Of a DNA stretch of 64,000 nt, positions 1 through 41,423 are shown piece by piece. The notes under the pieces were generated by a model. It had not been told where the DNA came from. It did not search any database and worked only from the letters and a program-made list of their open reading frames with translations. The stretch's first letter is position 1; the number at the start of each line of letters is the position of its first letter. A program made the translations under genes and the position numbers. Origin of the DNA: a virus; the IMG/VR virus record IMGVR_UViG_3300025895_000123; one strand, written 5' to 3'.

Positions 1-119
1 CGTCTGTGGCCTTGCGTTTTAACTTGATGGTCGCGCTGTGATTCGATTCCATCAAGCGAACTCCTAGGGAAAGAAGACGAGAGACTAATCCCTTTTATAA
101 CAAAGGCCACATCTCTCTC
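1..119 (+). ncRNA. Structured ncRNA, copy 1 (5' end cut off by window edge); homologous to 9770-9936
   Basis: CGTCTGTGGCCTTGCGT (1-17) and AAAGGCCAC (102-110) pair; CTTGATGG/CCATCAAG stem; AGGG..GAGAGACTAAT..CCCT stem-loop; same layout as the 9.8 kb copy with compensatory changes; no ORF. Confidence 0.7.
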
Positions 120-136
120 CCTTCGGGGTTTTTTCT
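117..136 (+). terminator. Short UUCG-loop hairpin plus T-run
   Basis: CCCTTCGGGG followed by TTTTTT; convergent with ORF 137-496. Confidence 0.5.
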
Positions 137-496
137 TTATAAGTTCTTCCATTCCTCATCAACAACTTTATCAGTGTGCATAATCTTCTCACTTTTAAGA
201 ACATTGTTTATCGCTATAGCAGCCTTTTTACTTATTTTTCTAACTTTTTCTTTTGATTCTTTAGAAGCATTCTTCGACATTTTAAATTGCATATTTAATA
301 TTTTCTGTTCTTTCGTAATATCTTCTATTTGATCTTGAAGTTGTTCTTGCTTTCCTTCATGTTTTGCAACTTCTATACTTTTTTGTTGTGGGTCTTTTTG
401 GATAAATTTCTTGAGAAGAAGCATTATTCCACCAAAGAGTGCAACACTTCCAAGACCAAATATCCCTATCTTAGCAGCACCTAACGATTCTAACAT
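137..496 (-). CDS. Membrane-anchored coiled-coil protein
   Basis: N-terminal hydrophobic helix (IGIFGLGSVALFGGIMLLL) then Lys/Glu/Gln-rich coiled coil. Confidence 0.6.
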   Translation of the reverse strand: MLESLGAAKIGIFGLGSVALFGGIMLLLKKFIQKDPQQKSIEVAKHEGKQEQLQDQIEDITKEQKILNMQFKMSKNASKESKEKVRKISKKAAIAINNVLKSEKIMHTDKVVDEEWKNL

Positions 497-4124: not shown

Positions 4125-4159
4125 GGTATTCATGGCATACATATAGAAATATATACAAT
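4125..4159 (+). promoter_or_regulatory. Conserved phage promoter motif driving the RAMP gene and array
   Basis: TTCA ends 4132, 9 nt gap, TATAGAAAT 4142-4150, then ATA-TACAAT. Confidence 0.7.
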
Positions 4160-4238
4160 AGAGGTAGAAGCATGAGGCTTCTACCATTTTAATTTACCGA
4201 ACCTACCCCAGGGGATAAATAGGGGGAAAGGATTTATC

Positions 4239-5204
4239 ATGGCTGAATATAAAACGAAGGAGAATGTCAAATCTCGAAAAAAGAAAAAAGTCTGGGAGTA
4301 CTATCAAGTCAATTTTCTTCTCAGGACTGAGATGTTAGGTACTTGTGCCGAAGCGTCTATCATGGAAATTCATGTCATTGAGAAGGCCAAAAAACAGATC
4401 ACTAAAGCAAATCGACTTGACAAGAAAATTAAGGCGTTAGATAAATTCAAAGGATCAGAAATTTCTGAAGAAAAAGAAATCGATGAACTCCAGGGTGTTA
4501 TTCGCACCTACATGGAACTAACGGGGAAACCAGCTCATGAAACTTTACCCCGTGATAAAAAAGAGTTAATGCAAATTGCTGAAGAAGTCCGAGATGAATT
4601 TCATGAACTTGTTAAAGCGGGTGAAGATGTTAAAGCAACTGTCTTCATGAGAAACACCAAGGTCAACCTTGGAATGGAACTTGAACCAGATGAAGACGAA
4701 ACAACAACATGGCCAATAATATCCACTCATATGCTCCTTGGAAATTTCAAGGAGAATGCGAATATTGTCATCAATGGAACTCATAAAGATGACAAAAAGA
4801 GTTTATTACCAGCACAACTTTCTACTAAGGTAAGTGTCGGTGAACAATTCGCAATGAGTGTCAAACCAGTGGAACCTTTCATGATTCCTAGTAATGACAT
4901 TGTCCGTAATGGTAATGGTGATCGGGAGATTCTTGAAAGAATTGTTAGATGGACAAATAACTTTGGAAAGACTGAAACTGCTATCGCAACATCTGAGATG
5001 CTTCCAGAAGGAACTACTTTCGGATGTATACTCCGTGTTCGGAAAAATTCTCCAATTAGTGAAGACTTTCTTAAAGAATTACTGGAGTATGGTAAAAACA
5101 ATGGCCTTGGTTCCTGGAGAGGTTCTGGGAACAAAGGATCATATTACTGGCAATTAGAGAAACTTGTTGATTACATGGAAGATAAACCGGATGGTTGGAA
5201 CTAA
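4239..5204 (+). CDS. Stand-alone Cas7/Csm3/Csf2-like RAMP-superfamily protein
   Basis: RAMP-like elements: N-terminal strand YYQVNFLLRTEMLGT, PIISTHMLLGNFKENA helix, SEMLPEGTTFGCILRV strand, C-terminal Gly-rich loop GLGSWRGSGNKG; helical insertion after the first strand. Confidence 0.75.
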   Translation: MAEYKTKENVKSRKKKKVWEYYQVNFLLRTEMLGTCAEASIMEIHVIEKAKKQITKANRLDKKIKALDKFKGSEISEEKEIDELQGVIRTYMELTGKPAHETLPRDKKELMQIAEEVRDEFHELVKAGEDVKATVFMRNTKVNLGMELEPDEDETTTWPIISTHMLLGNFKENANIVINGTHKDDKKSLLPAQLSTKVSVGEQFAMSVKPVEPFMIPSNDIVRNGNGDREILERIVRWTNNFGKTETAIATSEMLPEGTTFGCILRVRKNSPISEDFLKELLEYGKNNGLGSWRGSGNKGSYYWQLEKLVDYMEDKPDGWN

Positions 5205-6164
5205 TCATAACGCAATGGTTGGATGCTATTTTGTCCAGTAAATCTTTGTAACGGTGGGATGAATTACATCCTTGTGCCATCATGTTATGGTCATCTAACG
5301 CAATCTCAAGTGTTTTCTAGAGGTGGGATACCGTAGTATCTGTTGTAATTTCGTAACGGCAAACTAGGGTGGATCTTACGTGGATTTGAATTACCTCATG
5401 TATTGGTAAAGCAGTCTGTGATGATTTAAGATGGAGCGTTGTTACGGTCTGGTATCATGAGTTCCCGTTACCTGTGGTGTTGGTAGATTAATATCGTGTA
5501 TGATGCGATTAAGTCTAATCTCGTCTTGGTAAAATGGGATGGTACGATGCGATGTCTAGGTCAAATTAAGTCTTGGAAAGTGGACTGGTCTCTGATTATG
5601 TAACGTCAAGGTACGATACTATGAGGTGTTATGCCATCTTGTATGATAAACTAGAGTACAGGTCGGGTACGATGCGATTTAGCAATGTATCCTTTGTTCC
5701 GGTATTGGCCCAACCAAGTCATGCAATTTGTAGTGTTGGTGAATCGGGGTAGGGTTTGATTGAGTTGAGTATATTTACCTGATTTAATGTCTCGTATTGG
5801 TCCATTTTTGTCTCGAATGTGAGATAGGGTTGGATGGTGTTTTGGTAATATGCGATAATGTGACTTAACTCAAAACATCGCAAAATATCGTCGAGGTAAA
5901 GTAAAGTTCTATAGTGTGAACTAAAGTGTTGGTACGATGCCTAGTACAGGTGTATTTGAGCTGGATTTTTTGATGCAATACATCGTGGCGACAAATAAAA
6001 TAAAGCAAAGTAATAAACTAGTATAAGTATTCGTATTTAGTAACGGTACATTAAAGTGCTGTCCGTTCCGGTACAGGTGGGATGGTATGATGTTCTGTAT
6101 GATATAGTAATATCGGATTATGTGAAGTAGTGGTAAGATGAGATGTGATATAGTCACGTCGCGT
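5205..6164 (+). repeat. Non-coding pentamer-periodic array (NNNNY units punctuated by NNNGGY hexamers); putative guide-RNA array
   Basis: Pyrimidine (mostly T) at nearly every 5th base, e.g. 5613-5663 ACGAT ACTAT GAGGT GTTAT GCCAT CTTGT ATGAT AAACT AGAGT ACAGGT; starts at the RAMP stop codon, ends at a terminator. Confidence 0.85.
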
Positions 6165-6173
6165 CAACACCAA

Positions 6174-6209
6174 GATCCCCTTCTTCGGAGGGGGATCAAA
6201 CTTTTTTTT
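6174..6209 (+). terminator. Intrinsic terminator closing the RAMP-array transcript
   Basis: GATCCCCTTC-TTCG-GAGGGGGATC stem followed by AAAC and T8. Confidence 0.8.
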
Positions 6210-9465: not shown

Positions 9466-9711
9466 TTACTCCCCATTATTTCCCCTATTATTTTTTATAA
9501 AATCATGTATGTCTTGTATTGTTCTTAATTTTTCTGCTTCATCATCAGATATTTCAAAATTAACTTCTTCTTCTAATGTCATAATAAGTTCGACAACATC
9601 TAGAGAATCTGCCCCTAAGTCGTCAATAATACTTTTTTCTGCAGTAACCTCTTTTAAATCAACTCCTAGAGCTTCTGCGATTATTATATCGATCTTTTCT
9701 TCAGGTGTCAT
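9466..9711 (-). CDS. acpP: Acyl carrier protein
   Basis: LGADSLDVVELIMTLEEE phosphopantetheine-attachment motif; 81 aa, acidic. Confidence 0.92.
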   Translation of the reverse strand: MTPEEKIDIIIAEALGVDLKEVTAEKSIIDDLGADSLDVVELIMTLEEEVNFEISDDEAEKLRTIQDIHDFIKNNRGNNGE

Positions 9712-9724
9712 AAGACAGTCCTTT

Positions 9725-9759
9725 AATTTTCAAAATATATGTAGAGAAATAACTATAAT
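9725..9759 (+). promoter_or_regulatory. Variant of conserved promoter driving the ncRNA
   Basis: TTCA ends 9732-N9-TAGAGAAAT (9742-9750)-AAC-TATAAT. Confidence 0.6.
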
Positions 9760-9769
9760 AAACACGTTA

Positions 9770-9936
9770 TATATTTACTACCCTTCAATGGGTTGGCACG
9801 AGAGAGGATCAATCGCGTCTGTGAACTTGCGTAAAATCTATATAGCTTGTGCCGTAAAATTCTAAACTATATAGGTTGCTCCTTCAGGGAAGATGATGAG
9901 AAGACTAACCCTGCGAAACAAAGTTCACATCTTCTC
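9770..9936 (+). ncRNA. Structured, probably multi-pseudoknot ncRNA, copy 2
   Basis: ORF-free between promoter and terminator; helices GGCACGAG/CTTGTGCC, GTGAACTT/AAGTTCAC, AATCTATATAG/CTATATAGGTT, CAGGG/CCCTG, GAGAAGA/TCTTCTC; homologous to 1-119. Confidence 0.72.
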
Positions 9937-9940
9937 GAAT

Positions 9941-9970
9941 AGCCCCTTCGGGGGCTTCATCTTTTTTTTA
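9941..9970 (+). terminator. Intrinsic terminator
   Basis: AGCCCCTTCGGGGGCT then CATC and T8. Confidence 0.75.
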
Positions 9971-10005
9971 ATTTTCAACATTTATATATAGAAATTACTT
10001 ACTGA
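9970..10005 (+). promoter_or_regulatory. Conserved phage promoter motif
   Basis: TTCA ends 9977-N9-TATAGAAAT 9987-9995. Confidence 0.7.
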
Positions 10006-10041
10006 TATAATGCAAACTAACCTTAAAGAGGAGAACTTATA

Positions 10042-10290
10042 ATGGAACTATTAAACGATGGTATTCCAAATGTCGAACCTTTAACAAAAATCGAATATGC
10101 AGATATATTGAAAAGATTCACAAATGAAAATGGATATCTAAAAAATATCGATTTTGAACGTAGTGATAAGAAAATACTAACAAAAGAGGATCTAATCGAT
10201 CAAGAAATCCAAAATCAGTTTGAAGAAACCGAAAGAACGATTAGATCAATCAAAAAAAACATTGCTGAAATAATGCTCAATGATAAGTAA
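10042..10290 (+). CDS. Hypothetical acidic protein
   Basis: GAGGAG RBS; 82 aa. Confidence 0.6.
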   Translation: MELLNDGIPNVEPLTKIEYADILKRFTNENGYLKNIDFERSDKKILTKEDLIDQEIQNQFEETERTIRSIKKNIAEIMLNDK

Positions 10291-17467: not shown

Positions 17468-19279
17468 TTATTTAACCTTTGGAAGATCAATAGTGAATTT
17501 AGTCCATTTATCTTCTTTACTTTCAACACGTATGTTCCCACCATGATCTTTTATAATACCATAACTTATAGAAAGACCTAAACCCGTACCAAAATCTGGT
17601 CTTTTAGTTGTGAAAAAAGGTTCAAATATTCTCTGTCTAGCTTTTTTAGGTATACCAGGGCCATGATCCTTAAAGGTTAATCTTAAATACTCATGATGAT
17701 TACGAACTTTAACTTCAATAATTTTATCAATTTCTTCAATATTAGGATATTTCTCATTTAAAGCATAAATAGAATTACTCATTAAATTAACGACAACCTG
17801 TTGTATCTGTGAATTACTACATAAAACCATTGGTAAATAGTCTTCAATTTGTACATCAATAGTAACTCCATGTTTTTTCAAATTTGCTTTAAAAAGACTT
17901 ATTGAATCTGTTATGACCTCTTTAATGTCATTTGCGCTTTTCTCAACTTCATCTCTTCTAGCGAATGCGAGCAAATTTTTAACAATTTTAGCAATCCTAT
18001 TTCCTTCTCTAACAATTTCATTAGAATAACCATATTCCTCTGAACTTGACATTAACATATCTTTAAGTAACTCTCCATAAGTAATAATACCAGTGATGGG
18101 ATTATTAATTTCATGGGCAATTCCAGCCGCCATTTCTCCAAGAGAAGAAAGTCTTTGACTTTCGGCAAGTTGTTCTTGAATCTTATGACGTTCTGTGATG
18201 TCCCGTAACATTCCACGAAATCCTATTGGAGTATTATCTTTTGATCTTTTAATAAAAATATTAGATTCAATATGTCTTACTCCATCTTGTTCCTTAAATC
18301 TCCAATGCATCTTTTTGAAATCTTCATTAGACTTATGTATTCTAATGAATACTTGTTTTAATGACTGTGCAGTTTTTTCGAGGAAAAAATCACTGAAATG
18401 TTTTCCCAAAATTTTATTAGTCTTAAAATGAAATATAGTTAAAGCTGCAGCATTCACAAAAGTGAATCGTCCTTTTAAATCAATTTCATAATATCCTTCA
18501 TCTATGTTTTCAATAATAGTTCTATATTTATCTTCACTTTCTCTTAATTGCTCCATTACATCTTTATACTTTGTTACATCTGTGAAAGAATAAATACATC
18601 CTTTTTCTGGACGAAATCGATCAAGCATTTTTCCCATTAAAATACAAGATACACGAAAGCCATCTTTATGCAGAAAATCATGTTCTAAAACAACTTGACC
18701 ATTTCTAACGAATTGACTTTCTACTCTATTACTAATTTTAACAAATTCTTCTTGATCTTTATAAAGAAATTCAGATTTGTATCCTATTATCTCATTAGGT
18801 TTATATCCAAGAATCTTAGTCATTGCCTCATTACTCAAACGATTTTTTTTATCTTGGATATAACAAATACCATGACTCGTTGTATTGAGAACTGTAGATA
18901 GTAATTCTTTCGTATCTTCTTTTTCCTCAAATTGTTTCTGTAATTGTTTCTGTGATTTACTTTCTTTTAAACCAAATTCTATAATAAATATACCTAACAT
19001 TAAAAATAATACAGCAAATAGGAATCCGGCAAAGTCTTGAATATATTGTTCTAAATCGCCAATACCTAATTTATTAAAAACACCAAAATGATAACTAATT
19101 TCAACAAAAGCACCAAATACTATAAGGGATACACCAATAATAATATTTCTAACCTTTTGTATTCTTAGGTTTCGAAAAATTTTTAATAAATATAGCACAA
19201 TGATGAGCATGAATAAATAATTGGTACATTCTAGAATTACTTTTGTCATCATTATTGTCCTATCACTGAGATTTATCAC
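17468..19279 (-). CDS. Membrane PAS-PAS sensor histidine kinase
   Basis: N-terminal TMs, two PAS-like domains, H-box AHEINNP, N-box NLMSNS, DHGPGI, FEPFFTTK, GTGLGLSISYGII. Confidence 0.95.
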   Translation of the reverse strand: MINLSDRTIMMTKVILECTNYLFMLIIVLYLLKIFRNLRIQKVRNIIIGVSLIVFGAFVEISYHFGVFNKLGIGDLEQYIQDFAGFLFAVLFLMLGIFIIEFGLKESKSQKQLQKQFEEKEDTKELLSTVLNTTSHGICYIQDKKNRLSNEAMTKILGYKPNEIIGYKSEFLYKDQEEFVKISNRVESQFVRNGQVVLEHDFLHKDGFRVSCILMGKMLDRFRPEKGCIYSFTDVTKYKDVMEQLRESEDKYRTIIENIDEGYYEIDLKGRFTFVNAAALTIFHFKTNKILGKHFSDFFLEKTAQSLKQVFIRIHKSNEDFKKMHWRFKEQDGVRHIESNIFIKRSKDNTPIGFRGMLRDITERHKIQEQLAESQRLSSLGEMAAGIAHEINNPITGIITYGELLKDMLMSSSEEYGYSNEIVREGNRIAKIVKNLLAFARRDEVEKSANDIKEVITDSISLFKANLKKHGVTIDVQIEDYLPMVLCSNSQIQQVVVNLMSNSIYALNEKYPNIEEIDKIIEVKVRNHHEYLRLTFKDHGPGIPKKARQRIFEPFFTTKRPDFGTGLGLSISYGIIKDHGGNIRVESKEDKWTKFTIDLPKVK

Positions 19280-37384: not shown

Positions 37385-37978
37385 TTAACTAAATTGGGAA
37401 TAAAAATTATCACACATAGATTGAATTTGTTCAACAGAGGTTGCTGTCTCCAAATCTTTACTAAACTGCATCCATTGCTTATAAAGAAAATTACGTTCAG
37501 AAAGTTTGTCTAATAACGATAAATATTCTTCTAAATCAGCAATAAGATCTTGATTATCACTGTTAACTATTTCAAGATATTTCTCTTCTCGATTCGAATC
37601 AGAAATGATATATCCTGCAGCAGCAAGTTTATTATTCAAGATTTGATAACTAAAGAAATCAAACATACTTAAATATCCAATTCTAAAAGCTACAAAGTGT
37701 TTAGATCGAATTTTAGCTCCTTGTCTTTCGGCAGAAATTGGATCTGGAATATCTTGAATAATCACGTCTGCTTGTGTAATTTGGTAATCAATATTTTTAG
37801 GAAGATAAACGTCTTTTCCATTTCGTAAGGCATCTTCAATGTATGATCTTAATTCAGGTGTTGGTATTTCGTAATATCTGACTCCGCTATGATCAAAGAT
37901 TGATGCTTCATCCCCACCCAAAACGGAAACAACTTTATAGTTAACACCAACATCAACAACACTTGCTAGAATTCTCAT
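37385..37978 (-). CDS. Hypothetical protein of the rSAM/Cys-repeat operon
   Basis: GGAGG RBS; 197 aa helical. Confidence 0.65.
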   Translation of the reverse strand: MRILASVVDVGVNYKVVSVLGGDEASIFDHSGVRYYEIPTPELRSYIEDALRNGKDVYLPKNIDYQITQADVIIQDIPDPISAERQGAKIRSKHFVAFRIGYLSMFDFFSYQILNNKLAAAGYIISDSNREEKYLEIVNSDNQDLIADLEEYLSLLDKLSERNFLYKQWMQFSKDLETATSVEQIQSMCDNFYSQFS

Positions 37979-37998
37979 ATATTTTCCTCCAAAATAAA

Positions 37999-38508
37999 TT
38001 ATTCCTTAACATTTTGATCGTTATTACATTGACAGGTGCACGAATAATTACATTGACAGGTGCACGAATAATAACAATTACACGTACACGAATAATTACA
38101 TTGACACGTACATGAATAATCACAATTACACGTACATGAATAATTACACTGGCAAGTGCATGCTTCAATTTTCTCTTCTTTGATAGTTTCTCCAGAGTCA
38201 ATCTCATATTTATTTAATAATAATTCTATTTTCTCCAATAAATCAGGAAGTAATTCAACAACTTCAAGAATTTCCTGCACTGCCTTTATAAGTAATGGAG
38301 AGAATTGACTATAATCAACTTTAAGATGCCCTGTTTCTGAATCTCGAGTAACTATCGAATATTCTTCTGACCTGAATACTTTCATTAAATCTTGTGCTAT
38401 TACGCCAAAGAAAAATCTTTTATCAGAAATATTCTCAGAATGTTTATCCAAATCATATTTAAATTTAACTACTTTAAAACGTTTAACTAACTCTGAATAT
38501 TGCCCCAT
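37999..38508 (-). CDS. S74-like chaperone domain fused to CxCxC(N/D/Y)Y repeats
   Basis: FGVIAQDL..VDYSQFSPLLIKAVQE then 5 full and 1 partial xCTCxCxY repeats; lacks the N-terminal SDxRLK. Confidence 0.75.
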   Translation of the reverse strand: MGQYSELVKRFKVVKFKYDLDKHSENISDKRFFFGVIAQDLMKVFRSEEYSIVTRDSETGHLKVDYSQFSPLLIKAVQEILEVVELLPDLLEKIELLLNKYEIDSGETIKEEKIEACTCQCNYSCTCNCDYSCTCQCNYSCTCNCYYSCTCQCNYSCTCQCNNDQNVKE

Positions 38509-38553
38509 AATTTACCTATTTAAAGATATTCAACCTCCATTTTAAGTAATTCA

Positions 38554-39279
38554 TCAGTAGTTACAATTGCAAGTACATGCGTAATTACATTGACAAGTAC
38601 ATGCGTAATTACATTGACAAGTACAACCATAGTTACATTGACAAGTACAACCATAATTACATTGACAAGTACATGCGTAATTACAATTACAAGTGCACAC
38701 ATAATCACATTGACAAGTACATGCGTAATTACAATTACAAGCACATTGGGATTCAAAAGTATTAACTCCCGATCGTAGGCTTTCTATTTGTTCGTTCTGT
38801 ACTAAATCCCCTTCCTCTAAATTTGTAAGATTTAATGATGCATGTGCAGACCAAGGACCGAACAAATTTAACGCTGTTCTCATTGCTATAATTGTGGCAT
38901 TATCTACAGTTCCTCCAACGGAAACTGCTGCAGGAATGCTAGCACCTGCAGATCGTCTAACATTTTCATTAGCAATTGCCGTTCTTAACTCATTAATGTG
39001 TTGACTTTTAATAGGAACACCTGTAAGAGAAGGATCAGTCCAAGAAGTTGGAGTCACTGGAGCAATTTTTCCAGCATGGGATGGACAACCTAATGTTGAA
39101 TGAACAGGACAACTACTTGTCGCTGTATGTGCTGCACAAATTGTCGTTGCTGAATGAGATGTACAAGGTGTAGTATTACTGTGTGCTGTACAAGTTGTCG
39201 TTGCTAAATGAGATGTACAAGTTGTCGTTGCTAAATGAGATGTACATTGTGAGGTACTCGAATGATCTGTACAAGCCAT
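38554..39279 (-). CDS. Cys-repeat protein A (8 CxxH + central domain + 8 CxCxC(N/D)Y)
   Basis: GGAGG RBS; central PIKSQHINELRTAI domain; tandem repeats at both ends. Confidence 0.85.
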   Translation of the reverse strand: MACTDHSSTSQCTSHLATTTCTSHLATTTCTAHSNTTPCTSHSATTICAAHTATSSCPVHSTLGCPSHAGKIAPVTPTSWTDPSLTGVPIKSQHINELRTAIANENVRRSAGASIPAAVSVGGTVDNATIIAMRTALNLFGPWSAHASLNLTNLEEGDLVQNEQIESLRSGVNTFESQCACNCNYACTCQCDYVCTCNCNYACTCQCNYGCTCQCNYGCTCQCNYACTCQCNYACTCNCNY

Positions 39280-39324
39280 AATCTTCCTCCAAAATTTTTA
39301 TTATGAACACTCAATATTCTTTTA

Positions 39325-39612
39325 TCAATAGTTACAATTGCAAGTACAAGAATAGTTACATTTACAGGTACATGCATAGTTACATTGACAAGTACATGCA
39401 TAGTTACATTGACAAGTACAACCATAGTTACATTGACAAGTGCACGAATAGTTACATTGACAAGTGCACGCATAGTTACAATTACAGGTACATGCATAGT
39501 TACATTGACAAGTACAACCATAGTTACATTGACAAGTGCACGCATAGTTACATTGACAAGTACATGCGTAGTTACATTGACAAGTGCACGCATAGTTACA
39601 ATTACAAACGCA
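39325..39612 (-). repeat. 24-nt coding tandem repeat (12 units)
   Basis: ACATTGACAAGTACATGCATAGTT-type units encoding xCTCQCNY; related runs at ~38020-38160 and ~38555-38745. Confidence 0.9.
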
Positions 39613-40248
39613 TTCTGATTCAAAAGTATTAAGTCCTGATCTTAAACTCTCTATTTGTTCATTCTGTATTACATCCCCTTCTTCTAAATTTGCAGGGTCT
39701 AATGATGAATGTGCAGACCAAGGACCAAACAAATTCAAGGCGGTTCTCATTGCTATAACTGTAGCGTTATCTACAGATCCTCCAACGGAAACTGTACCAG
39801 GAATAGTAGCTCCTGCACTTCTTCTAATATTTTCGTTATTAATCGCTGTTCTTAATTCATTTAGATGTTGAGCTTTAATTGCAACACCTGTAAGAGAAGT
39901 ATCAGTCCACGAAGTTGGGACTATAGCAGGAATATGTCCTGTACAACCAGATACTGGTCCTGCTGTGTGTGCTGTACAAGCTGTCGTTGCTAAGTGTGAT
40001 ATACAAGCTGATGTCGCTGCGTGTGCTGAACAAGGAGTAGTATTACTATGTGCCGAACAAGTTGTCGTTACTGAGTGTGATGTACATCCTGAATTAACAT
40101 GGCCACCACAAGTTGTTGTAAGTGAATGTGATACACAAGCTATAGTATTACTGTGTGCTGCACAAGTTATCGTCGCTGAATGAATACCACATGCACCAGC
40201 GCTATGAGTACCACAAGATGTCGTACTTGTGTGATTATTACAAGCCAT
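39325..40248 (-). CDS. Cys-repeat protein B (12 CxxH + central domain + 12 CxCxCNY)
   Basis: Paralog of 38554-39279; AIKAQHLNELRTAIN domain. Confidence 0.85.
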   Translation of the reverse strand: MACNNHTSTTSCGTHSAGACGIHSATITCAAHSNTIACVSHSLTTTCGGHVNSGCTSHSVTTTCSAHSNTTPCSAHAATSACISHLATTACTAHTAGPVSGCTGHIPAIVPTSWTDTSLTGVAIKAQHLNELRTAINNENIRRSAGATIPGTVSVGGSVDNATVIAMRTALNLFGPWSAHSSLDPANLEEGDVIQNEQIESLRSGLNTFESECVCNCNYACTCQCNYACTCQCNYACTCQCNYGCTCQCNYACTCNCNYACTCQCNYSCTCQCNYGCTCQCNYACTCQCNYACTCKCNYSCTCNCNY

Positions 40249-40265
40249 AATCTTCCTCCAAAGAT

Positions 40266-41423
40266 TTAATTCTTTACAATATGATTTAAAGCTTTCATAA
40301 TTCTACCGTTAATTTTATAAAATCTACAAAGTATTGGTTGGTTTGCATAATCTCTCCACTTCTCAATATAAGTATCTTTATCACTTTTTTCATACTTAAC
40401 TGGATTACACCGCAAACAATACCCAGCTTCACAATCAAGGCATTCTAAAGGCTGATAGCCAAAATTTGTATCGTGCAAAATATGAGAATCAACTAATTTT
40501 TTTATAAAATCTGAATCTTTTAAATTAGAAACAATATGATCATCAACTTTATCGTCATAAACACTTCCATGACATTTATAAATTTTTCCACCTACTCCAA
40601 TACAAACCATATCTCTTCCAGCAGAACAGAGAGCTTTATTTGGAGTAAACCAAGCAAAAAAGAATTGATTATTGTTCTTTTTATAAAATTCTATATCTTT
40701 CGTTGCTATCTCTGTAAGTGCATTTTCTAAATCTACACAATATTCATCAATTTCATTTTCATTATACTTACCCAAATGATAATAATCAATAGTTGGAAAA
40801 TAATTATTAGCATGAAAAAATTGTTGTCCTGAATGTCTCTCATAAATATCTCTTATATCATCATAAGCAGCAGGTAAATATTTAAAAGCATCAAGAGTAA
40901 CAGTAGATTTTATTGTACTTGGAATTCTATGTTTGTAAACACGAAAAATATTATCTCTAACTCGAGTCGAAGTTAAAACTCCATCTTTTCTAACTCGATA
41001 AATATCATGTATTGGCATTCCATCATACGACATTTGAATGCAAAATTTAGGATGTCCACCTTCAATAAAAGTGTCTTTGAATTTAATCAAAGAATCCCAT
41101 ACACCATCTAAATTATAACCATTACTAAAAATAAAATATTTAACTCTAGAGTTATTTGCATAATAATTCACAATATAATTTACAGTTTTATGAGCTAGTG
41201 TAGGCTCACCACCCCATAAACCAATATTTAATGCATCATAATGTTGTTTGAAAAAATCTGAGTCTAATAATTGATTTATTTTATTAATAAATAGATCAAC
41301 ATCTTTAAAGAATGTATTTCTAAAATGTCCATCTTCAAAACAATACTTACATCCAAAATTGCAAGAATCTGTTAGTGTTAAATCTATATTATATATACGA
41401 ACTTGACTAAAATTTTTACCCAT
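40266..41423 (-). CDS. Radical SAM/SPASM peptide maturase-like enzyme
   Basis: CNFGCKYC, WGGEP, CSAG..YKCHG..CLDC..CLRC. Confidence 0.88.
   Translation of the reverse strand: MGKNFSQVRIYNIDLTLTDSCNFGCKYCFEDGHFRNTFFKDVDLFINKINQLLDSDFFKQHYDALNIGLWGGEPTLAHKTVNYIVNYYANNSRVKYFIFSNGYNLDGVWDSLIKFKDTFIEGGHPKFCIQMSYDGMPIHDIYRVRKDGVLTSTRVRDNIFRVYKHRIPSTIKSTVTLDAFKYLPAAYDDIRDIYERHSGQQFFHANNYFPTIDYYHLGKYNENEIDEYCVDLENALTEIATKDIEFYKKNNNQFFFAWFTPNKALCSAGRDMVCIGVGGKIYKCHGSVYDDKVDDHIVSNLKDSDFIKKLVDSHILHDTNFGYQPLECLDCEAGYCLRCNPVKYEKSDKDTYIEKWRDYANQPILCRFYKINGRIMKALNHIVKN

Follow-up and report, generated by a model that had tools for sequence, protein, structure and literature searches.

The intergenic gap at positions 9700-10050 of the phage DNA studied here, a piece of AT-rich sequence, raises the question of whether it holds an RNA gene, what such an RNA folds into and what it does for the phage. 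The window, meaning the whole stretch of 64,000 nucleotides that was analyzed, is taken from the viral record IMGVR_UViG_3300025895_000123. A sequence-only reading had placed in the gap a compact, pseudoknotted, stand-alone RNA of no known family, and had noted a second copy at the very start of the window. The present analysis supports that reading, since the main helices are kept by compensatory change in five further homologs. From the comparison of these sequences, it is close to certain that the locus encodes a real and new family of structured RNA with a double-pseudoknot fold. The family and fold are categorically new, a label that covers these two and not a demonstrated mechanism. The structured noncoding RNA genes are about 165-210 nt in size and occur in one to three copies per phage in a marine jumbo-type phage and three of its relatives.

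Two paralogs in the window and five homologs in related phages

The RNA in the gap (copy 2, window 9779-9936) and the one at the start of the window (copy 1, window 1-123) are paralogs with 64% identity. Alignment of 9816-9936 with the first 119 bases of the window gives 70% column identity, and the 17-mer CGTCTGTGNNCTTGCGT occurs at window positions 1 and 9816 only, compared with 0.2 expected occurrences. The alignment and the 17-mer found exactly twice show that both copies and the sequence blocks they were said to share are present.

The 5' side of copy 1 is cut by the window edge. To obtain the missing end, the protein encoded at 137-496 (- strand) was matched by identity to a JGI contig, L094, which covers both copies and continues for 8 kb past the start of the window. 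The full copy 1 lies at L094:10116-10300, on the minus strand of the L094 locus, and includes a promoter motif and the 5' strand of a pseudoknot helix (PKa), UAGCGCGA. The order upstream of copy 1 on L094 is the terminator of the preceding gene, the promoter-like motif, GGUU and UAGCGCGA.

Relatives were reached through homologs of the neighboring 119- and 170-amino acid proteins, which are 54-70% identical on contigs of related phages, and the syntenic regions L111/L112, L115 and L119/L120 were taken. The longest related-phage contig is 306 kb, which indicates jumbo-class genomes. A first covariance model, built on copy 2 alone and containing only the nested helices P1, P2 and P3, matched copy 1 (47.7 bits) and a further four sequences (50-85 bits). 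With a second model, for which these six sequences were used, the seventh member was added at 89.6 bits; in this second round copy 2 scored 164.9 bits and the truncated window copy 1 scored 108 bits. The seven distinct members are copy 1, copy 2, L111:6983-7147, L115:7239-7401, L115:12999-13156, L115:1755-1926 and L119:8171-8333 (the three on L115 are called L115a, L115b and L115c). Five of them are thus new homologs from syntenic contigs of three related phages, and identity between member pairs ranges from 50 to 72% across the four phage lineages. Extension of copy 1 upstream and a covariance-model search had been proposed as checks; the first gave the copy 1 5' end and the second the five homologs.

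None of the 4227 covariance models of Rfam 15 matched at the gathering threshold in the 64-kb window or in L094, L111, L115 and L119, in agreement with the earlier statement that the RNA could not be assigned to a known family. Permissive Rfam scans of three members (E up to 10) returned only unrelated matches with E >0.4, which differed by member. ARAGORN found no tRNA or tmRNA gene in the window, and the members have no reading frame in common. The 118-codon open reading frame at 9509-9865 (+), which runs antisense through an acyl-carrier-protein gene into the RNA, shows no conservation and can almost certainly be taken as spurious.

A three-way junction with two pseudoknots

The elements of copy 2 and copy 1 are listed below.

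9779-9936, + strand: core of copy 2, from the 5' hairpin through the end of PKc (covariance-model match)
9780-9793, + strand: P0, a small 5' hairpin, ACCC/GGGU (folding), variable and outside the conserved core
9795-9802, + strand: PKa 5' strand, GGCACGAG, after a conserved GGUU, pairing with 9846-9853
9816-9819, + strand: CGUC, unpaired, in the junction 5' of P1, identical in all seven members
9820-9828, + strand: P1 5' strand, U followed by GUGAACUU, pairing with 9921-9929
9835-9845, + strand: P2 5' strand, AAUCUAUAUAG, pairing with 9867-9877
9846-9853, + strand: PKa 3' strand, CUUGUGCC, inside the P2 loop and abutting the P2 5' strand (covariation)
9867-9877, + strand: P2 3' strand (covariation)
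9885-9889, + strand: P3 5' strand, CAGGG, after the semi-conserved pyrimidine junction UCCUU, pairing with 9909-9913
9898-9904, + strand: PKc 5' strand, GAGAAGA, in the P3 loop between conserved AAGAAG-like and CUAA segments, pairing with 9930-9936
9909-9913, + strand: P3 3' strand, CCCUG (covariation)
9921-9929, + strand: P1 3' strand, AAGUUCAC followed by A, after an invariant AACAA (covariation)
9930-9936, + strand: PKc 3' strand, UCUUCUC, directly 3' of P1 (covariation)
1-135, + strand: copy 1 with its 5' side cut by the window edge; CGUCU at 1-5, P1 at 5-13/103-111, P2 at 23-30/49-56, PKa 3' strand at 31-38, P3 at 66-70/89-93, PKc at 79-84/112-117
119-134, + strand: copy 1 cUUCGg hairpin with a 3-bp stem, followed by U6

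The helices follow the order PKa-P1-P2-PKa'-P2'-P3-PKc-P3'-P1'-PKc'. In the fold, P1 (9 bp) closes a three-way junction from which P2 and P3 extend as hairpins, and two H-type pseudoknots are added to it: PKa, between the 5' segment and the P2 loop, and PKc, between the P3 loop and the 3' tail. PKa abuts the P2 5' strand without a linker, so that stacking on P2 would be possible, and PKc begins right after P1, so that it could stack on P1. As modeled, this geometry would allow two coaxial stacks. Around the junction there are about 40 invariant or nearly invariant unpaired nucleotides, in the segments CGUC, UUGCG, UCCUU, AGGAAAGAAG, CUAA and AACAA.

Base pairs were counted for P1, P2, P3, PKa and PKc on an alignment of the seven sequences, which come from four related phages and form the sample behind all covariation counts. 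Standard pairs occupy 94.6% of the 258 pair cells. After shuffling, 74% of the cells hold standard pairs and none of 500 shuffles reaches the observed value; when the 3' partners are slid by 1-3 columns, the proportion falls to 39-47%. Both sides of the pair change in 29 of 38 pairs. For P1, all cells are paired and 5/8 pairs have changes on both sides; the corresponding values are 96% and 11/11 for P2, and 100% and 2/4 for P3. RNAalifold extends P1 by an invariant U-A pair. The counts for P1, P2 and P3 lean toward the structure because these nested helices were contained in the model used for aligning. The search model did not contain PKa and PKc, whose covariation is therefore independent of the alignment method.

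For PKa, the crossing helix GGCACGAG/CUUGUGCC that had been read from copy 2 is confirmed, with 98.2% of the cells paired across the seven members and both-side changes in 7/8 pairs. Its sequence is wholly different between members, for example GAUGUGAC/GUCACAUC in L115b and UAGCGCAAG/CUUGCGCUA in L119, and its length is 8-10 bp. The newly obtained 5' end of copy 1 contains the partner that had been predicted for it: UAGCGCGA pairs with UCGCGCUG of the P2 loop, in a position equivalent to that of the copy 2 pairing.

PKc is 6-8 bp long in all seven members. In the seven-sequence alignment it is misaligned through an indel and reaches 77%, but with the register fixed by the conserved CUAA and the end of P1, all 42 cells are Watson-Crick pairs and 5/6 positions are changed on both sides. 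The versions GAGAAGA, GAGAGA, AAGAGG, AAGGGA and GAGGGG each have an exact complement, and only 7 of 5000 reassignments of the tails match the anchored score. GAGAAGA/UCUUCUC and GAGAGA/UCUCUC are the versions of the two window copies, as recognized earlier.

The nested helices proposed from the two window copies were also recovered. P1 co-varies between the copies (GUGAACUU/AAGUUCAC versus GUGGCCUU/AAGGCCAC), the inner stem of unrelated sequence corresponds to P2 and is a perfect stem in each copy, and P3 is present as AGGG/CCCU. One proposed pairing did not hold. CGUCU can pair with AGAUG or AGACG in the two window copies, but a third pseudoknot of the type CGUCU:AGAYG was rejected across the seven members, where CGUCU is invariant and its partner becomes AGUUG, AGCCG or ACCUA. 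Judged by eye, neither a triplex of a pyrimidine strand on PKc nor a T-loop in P2 is consistent across members, and both were rejected. There are 14 G-U pairs compared with 5 A-C pairs; this excess and terminators oriented in the same direction as the RNA indicate that the sense strand is the + strand of the window.

Some features are restricted to subsets of members. The 5' hairpin differs or is longer in other members, for instance GGAGAAG/CUUCUCU in L111. Three members have an additional conserved 5' extension, CCUGGRGA... (L111:7148-7182, L115:7402-7425 and L115:1927-1960), which gives a longer P0 hairpin with one compensatory change and which in L115a extends over the final codons and the stop of the gene upstream. 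Paralogs of the copy 1 type carry UUCGAUU, resembling a tRNA T-loop, in the P2 loop (window 31-48; L115c at L115:13085-13110), and this sequence is not present in the other paralog types.

Gene organization and distribution

Copy 2 is flanked by an acyl-carrier-protein gene (9466-9711, -; PP-binding) and an 82-codon open reading frame (10042-10290, +). The putative signals on either side of it are the following.

9722-9750, + strand: promoter-like motif before copy 2, TTTAATTTTCAA, 8 nt, TAGAGAAAT, one mismatch from the recurrent TATAGAAAT (repeat family D8)
9941-9969, + strand: intrinsic-terminator-like hairpin AGCCCCUUCGGGGGCU followed by a U run (terminator scan)

For TATAGAAAT, 12 occurrences were counted in the window where 3.3 were expected; 11 of them are on the + strand just upstream of + strand open reading frames, and an upstream box similar to TTTAATATTCAA belongs to the motif. 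The motif TTTAATATTCAA, about 8 nt, TATATAGAAAT was found on the + strand at 1818, 4142, 6227, 9987, 56256, 58078, 58623, 59312, 59546 and 61027, and it opens nearly every + strand gene cassette, including that of the Vipr gene. It does not conform to the σ70 consensus, and this suggests a phage-directed class of transcription. Of the promoter that the sequence-only reading had given to the RNA, what stands is this repeated phage motif upstream, a putative promoter; a canonical σ70 match does not, as the promoter scan found no σ70 consensus before copy 2 on the + strand. The extended motif precedes four of the seven members (copy 1, L115b, L115c and, with one mismatch, copy 2). The members without it, L111, L115a and L119, are placed directly after a coding sequence on the same strand.

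The CCCUUCGGGG hairpin described after each copy is present in both and is followed by a U run, but the terminator scan is positive for copy 2 and negative for copy 1, where the signal is weak (a 3-bp cUUCGg stem and U6). A GC hairpin followed by a U run is found after copy 2, L111, L115a and L115b (4/7). No recognizable terminator follows L115c or L119, which shows that an independent gene is not universal in the family. The next gene is convergent in 5/7 members, and for copy 2 and L111, whose next gene is co-oriented, that gene has a promoter motif of its own, placed after the terminator. For these reasons the RNA is not a 5'-leader element or riboswitch. The overlap of the terminator stem with PKc or P1 by which a cis-acting riboswitch would be recognized is also absent.

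Elsewhere in the window there are matches to tail-fiber, tail-spike and baseplate proteins, those to fiber and baseplate being T4-like. Long tandem arrays with 24- and 27-nt periods lie within minus-strand open reading frames at 37976-40280 (repeat families D1-D6), and Pfam identifies a PAS-HisKA-HATPase histidine kinase at 17468-19279 (-). In all four phages an RNA-ligase-like gene, with weak matches to the Pfam families RLIG1 and RNA_ligase, is located near the RNA cassettes: L094:11096-11809 (about 0.8 kb beyond the left edge of the window), L111:10663-11373, L115:13526-14233 and L119:12478-13194. Its homologs, 60-70% identical, are very widespread and some are on bacterial contigs. On one such contig (L131) the ligase homolog is accompanied by dsrC, dsrD and genes of the sulfite-reductase family (NIR_SIR), which may hint at the host range or at gene exchange with sulfate reducers.

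The copy number, position and orientation of the RNA vary between syntenic relatives. Outside them, no member was recovered. Four signature scans of IMG/VR gave no member. The scan with block A gave 84 IMG/VR matches, all by chance; the loop-pattern scan and the three-block patterns on IMG/VR viral contigs gave no matches, nor did the P3-loop signature. Signature scans of JGI metagenome contigs (15 matches) and GTDB genome contigs (9 matches) returned only chance matches, the GTDB scan giving no bacterial member, and the phages collection contained no similar DNA. There was no member in relatives reached through the adjacent acyl-carrier protein (L085-L093, five whole IMG/VR records) or in further contigs of the clade, including those from P0005 and P0008, and the RNA-ligase route, which led mostly to bacterial contigs, gave no new one. 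Sequencing reads contained no variants: runs X1 and X2 were identical and are probably the source, and X3 and X4 gave only short identical fragments. Two weak model matches were rejected, L094:17443-17582, which lies inside a coding sequence and lacks the motifs, and L111:11918-11946, on inspection. The variable copies and positions, together with the absence of the RNA from further contigs, from the phages that share the acyl-carrier protein and from bacterial genomes, indicate that it has the behavior of an accessory cassette confined to a narrow clade of phages.

Possible functions and relation to known RNAs

Our overall reading, to which we give about an even chance on the strength of the sequence comparisons, is that these are uncatalogued noncoding RNA genes, carried as optional cassettes by a small clade of large marine or estuarine phages, whose product is a stand-alone folded RNA that acts in trans. 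A phage promoter would give rise to the RNA as a small transcript of its own, or the RNA would be released from the 3' end of an upstream mRNA; its end would be set by its own terminator. It would then act in trans as a folded object, most likely as a module that binds a specific protein or small molecule, and it might be used during host takeover or in conflict between genetic elements. This mode of action is our best guess; a role as an mRNA leader or antisense regulator is probably not the case. Conservation centered on a junction, with helices free to vary, is typical of riboswitch and ribozyme families, and by analogy we infer from the invariant junction and freely varying helices of the present RNA a pattern of ligand- or protein-binding RNAs and ribozymes. 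The conserved neighbors point to no partner protein or ligand.

The same pattern leads to catalysis as an alternative, in which the double-pseudoknotted junction would be the active site of a self-cleaving or otherwise catalytic RNA. Cleavage would free the RNA from an upstream mRNA or make defined ends, perhaps for the ligase-like enzyme about 1 kb away. Self-cleaving ribozymes are common in phage genomes, and the complex fold and invariant junction nucleotides would suit one. The three members that come right after a coding sequence without a promoter motif would need processing for their release, and the RLIG1/RNA_ligase-like gene is about 0.4-3.6 kb from a member in all four lineages. We nevertheless find this unlikely, given that the ribozyme models of Rfam return no match, even with E values of up to 10 allowed, and that the helix order is unlike that of HDV-like, twister, pistol, hatchet and glmS ribozymes. 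Cleavage would also be unnecessary where the RNA has its own promoter motif (4/7) and terminator (4/7), and members of the ligase family occur widely in bacteria and phages without the RNA. The position of 5/7 members at convergent junctions, three of the family being directly after a same-strand coding sequence, may instead point to a cis-acting module at transcript ends that serves termination, insulation or protection against exonucleases as in the xrRNAs. A terminator hairpin does follow most copies, and the pairing of the P3 loop with the tail, together with a 5' segment that pairs back, resembles the topology of flavivirus xrRNA. We consider such a module rather unlikely, as the promoter motif separates copies 1 and 2 from the upstream genes and the gene upstream of copy 1 has a terminator of its own, so that there is no upstream mRNA to protect. 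Moreover, a plain hairpin is enough for termination and leaves some 40 invariant unpaired nucleotides unexplained, and the 5'-side pseudoknot partner is the P2 loop, unlike the junction used in xrRNA.

The fold could also be a scaffold for a base-pairing sRNA, whose exposed UCCUU/CUCCU between P2 and P3 would pair with Shine-Dalgarno-like AAGGA(G) of host or phage mRNAs. In the model the conserved UCCUU-like junction is left unpaired, and its sequence complements ribosome-binding sites, for example AAAGAGGAG upstream of the gene at 10042; a stand-alone gene with a terminator is shared with many sRNAs. We consider this improbable: the seed is just 4-5 nt and degenerate (UUUCC in L115b), no extended target complementarity was identified, and a fold with two covarying pseudoknots and a conserved multi-helix junction would be unusual for such sRNAs. 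A part in the VIPR system, as guide-RNA tail, solo vrRNA or accessory RNA, was considered for the reason that the Vipr gene with its array (4125-6209) lies between the two window copies, about 4 kb from each, and that vrRNAs carry a pseudoknotted tail at their end (bioRxiv 10.64898/2026.04.26.720920). It is largely refuted and retains only a very slight probability. Neither the RNA nor the sequence before it contains a tract of GGYNN repeats, no 5-nt periodic tract occurs in or upstream of either copy, the RNA is about three times the length of the vrRNA tail, and the tblastn search for Vipr homologs gave one in the window phage (L094) but none in the ~20-kb loci of L111, L115 and L119.

The RNA might belong to a new functional class, either a stand-alone early aptamer that soaks up a host small molecule or, alternatively, a new class of ribozyme whose products feed the RNA-ligase-like enzyme. 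This is a speculative proposal with a low probability. Such a role fits the junction conservation, the free helices, the divergent paralogs, the accessory presence and a region that contains an inter-phage weapon (VIPR). Earlier RNAs with invariant junctions and covarying pseudoknotted helices proved to be ribozymes, riboswitch aptamers or ribonucleoprotein cores. An aptamer would be the RNA counterpart of protein "sponges", for example for an immune-signaling nucleotide. Folds of this complexity are seldom newly found, and here one is encoded by a free-standing, multi-copy accessory gene of large uncultured phages, among genes of host takeover and inter-phage conflict, where RNA functions are only starting to be recognized. 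The five covarying helices and seven natural variants provide a concrete model that is ready for in vitro work.

Among known phage RNAs, the closest in position is the VIPR vrRNA, in which a tract of GGY/NN repeats, five bases each, precedes a short, conserved pseudoknot tail (bioRxiv 10.64898/2026.04.26.720920). Both are phage-encoded pseudoknotted noncoding RNAs in a common accessory region, 4 kb apart, but the present RNA lacks GGYNN repeats, is found in Vipr-free loci and has a much larger, unrelated fold. A catalogue of viral structured RNAs lists 10,006 candidates, 8,495 of them from IMG/VR (PMC10690425). The present RNA is probably not in this catalogue, since the catalogue is mostly from IMG/VR and four signature scans of IMG/VR gave no member. 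It shares with the raiA, ROOL, GOLLD and IMES motifs a discovery through covariation, an intricate conserved structure and an often phage or environmental origin, but it matches none of those orphan classes within Rfam 15.

The flavivirus xrRNA is built on a three-way junction in which the P3 loop pairs just 3' of P1, and its 5' end pairs with the junction and threads a ring. The present RNA has a three-way junction, a P3-loop pairing of the PKc type directly after P1 in all seven members and a knotted topology, so that the two resemble each other in topology only. It is larger by a factor of about 2.5 and originates from a bacterial virus; the P2 loop, and not the junction, is the partner of its 5' segment, and there is neither sequence similarity nor an Rfam match. 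As it ends at a terminator, it has no downstream RNA to protect, unlike xrRNA. HDV-like ribozymes have the order P1-P2-P3-P3'-P1'-P4-P4'-P2', a 2-bp P1.1 and a catalytic C in J4/2, and double-pseudoknot ribozymes of this kind are known in phages (HDV-like "theta"). The present RNA is similar to HDV-like and glmS ribozymes in its compact nested and crossing helices and its conserved junction nucleotides, and the pairing of the P3 loop with the segment after P1 is topologically like HDV P1.1. However, the helix order does not match, PKc has 6-8 bp compared with 2 bp, no catalytic C or cleavage-site signature can be assigned, and there is no Rfam match of the HDV/CPEB3 type.

The pRNA of the phi29 family is likewise a phage-encoded, stand-alone structured RNA, about 120-174 nt in size; it has its own promoter and terminator, to which a putative promoter motif and, in 4/7 members, a terminator hairpin would correspond in the present RNA. 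The covarying loop-loop pairs of pRNA are intermolecular, and PKa or PKc could thus in principle be intermolecular as well. The present RNA has no Rfam pRNA match, belongs to a large-genome phage with T4-like fiber and baseplate matches and, unlike an essential packaging component, has several divergent paralogs per genome and a variable presence. The flavivirus xrRNA, the HDV-like and glmS ribozymes and phi29 pRNA would be its nearest architectural analogies, as resemblances and not memberships.
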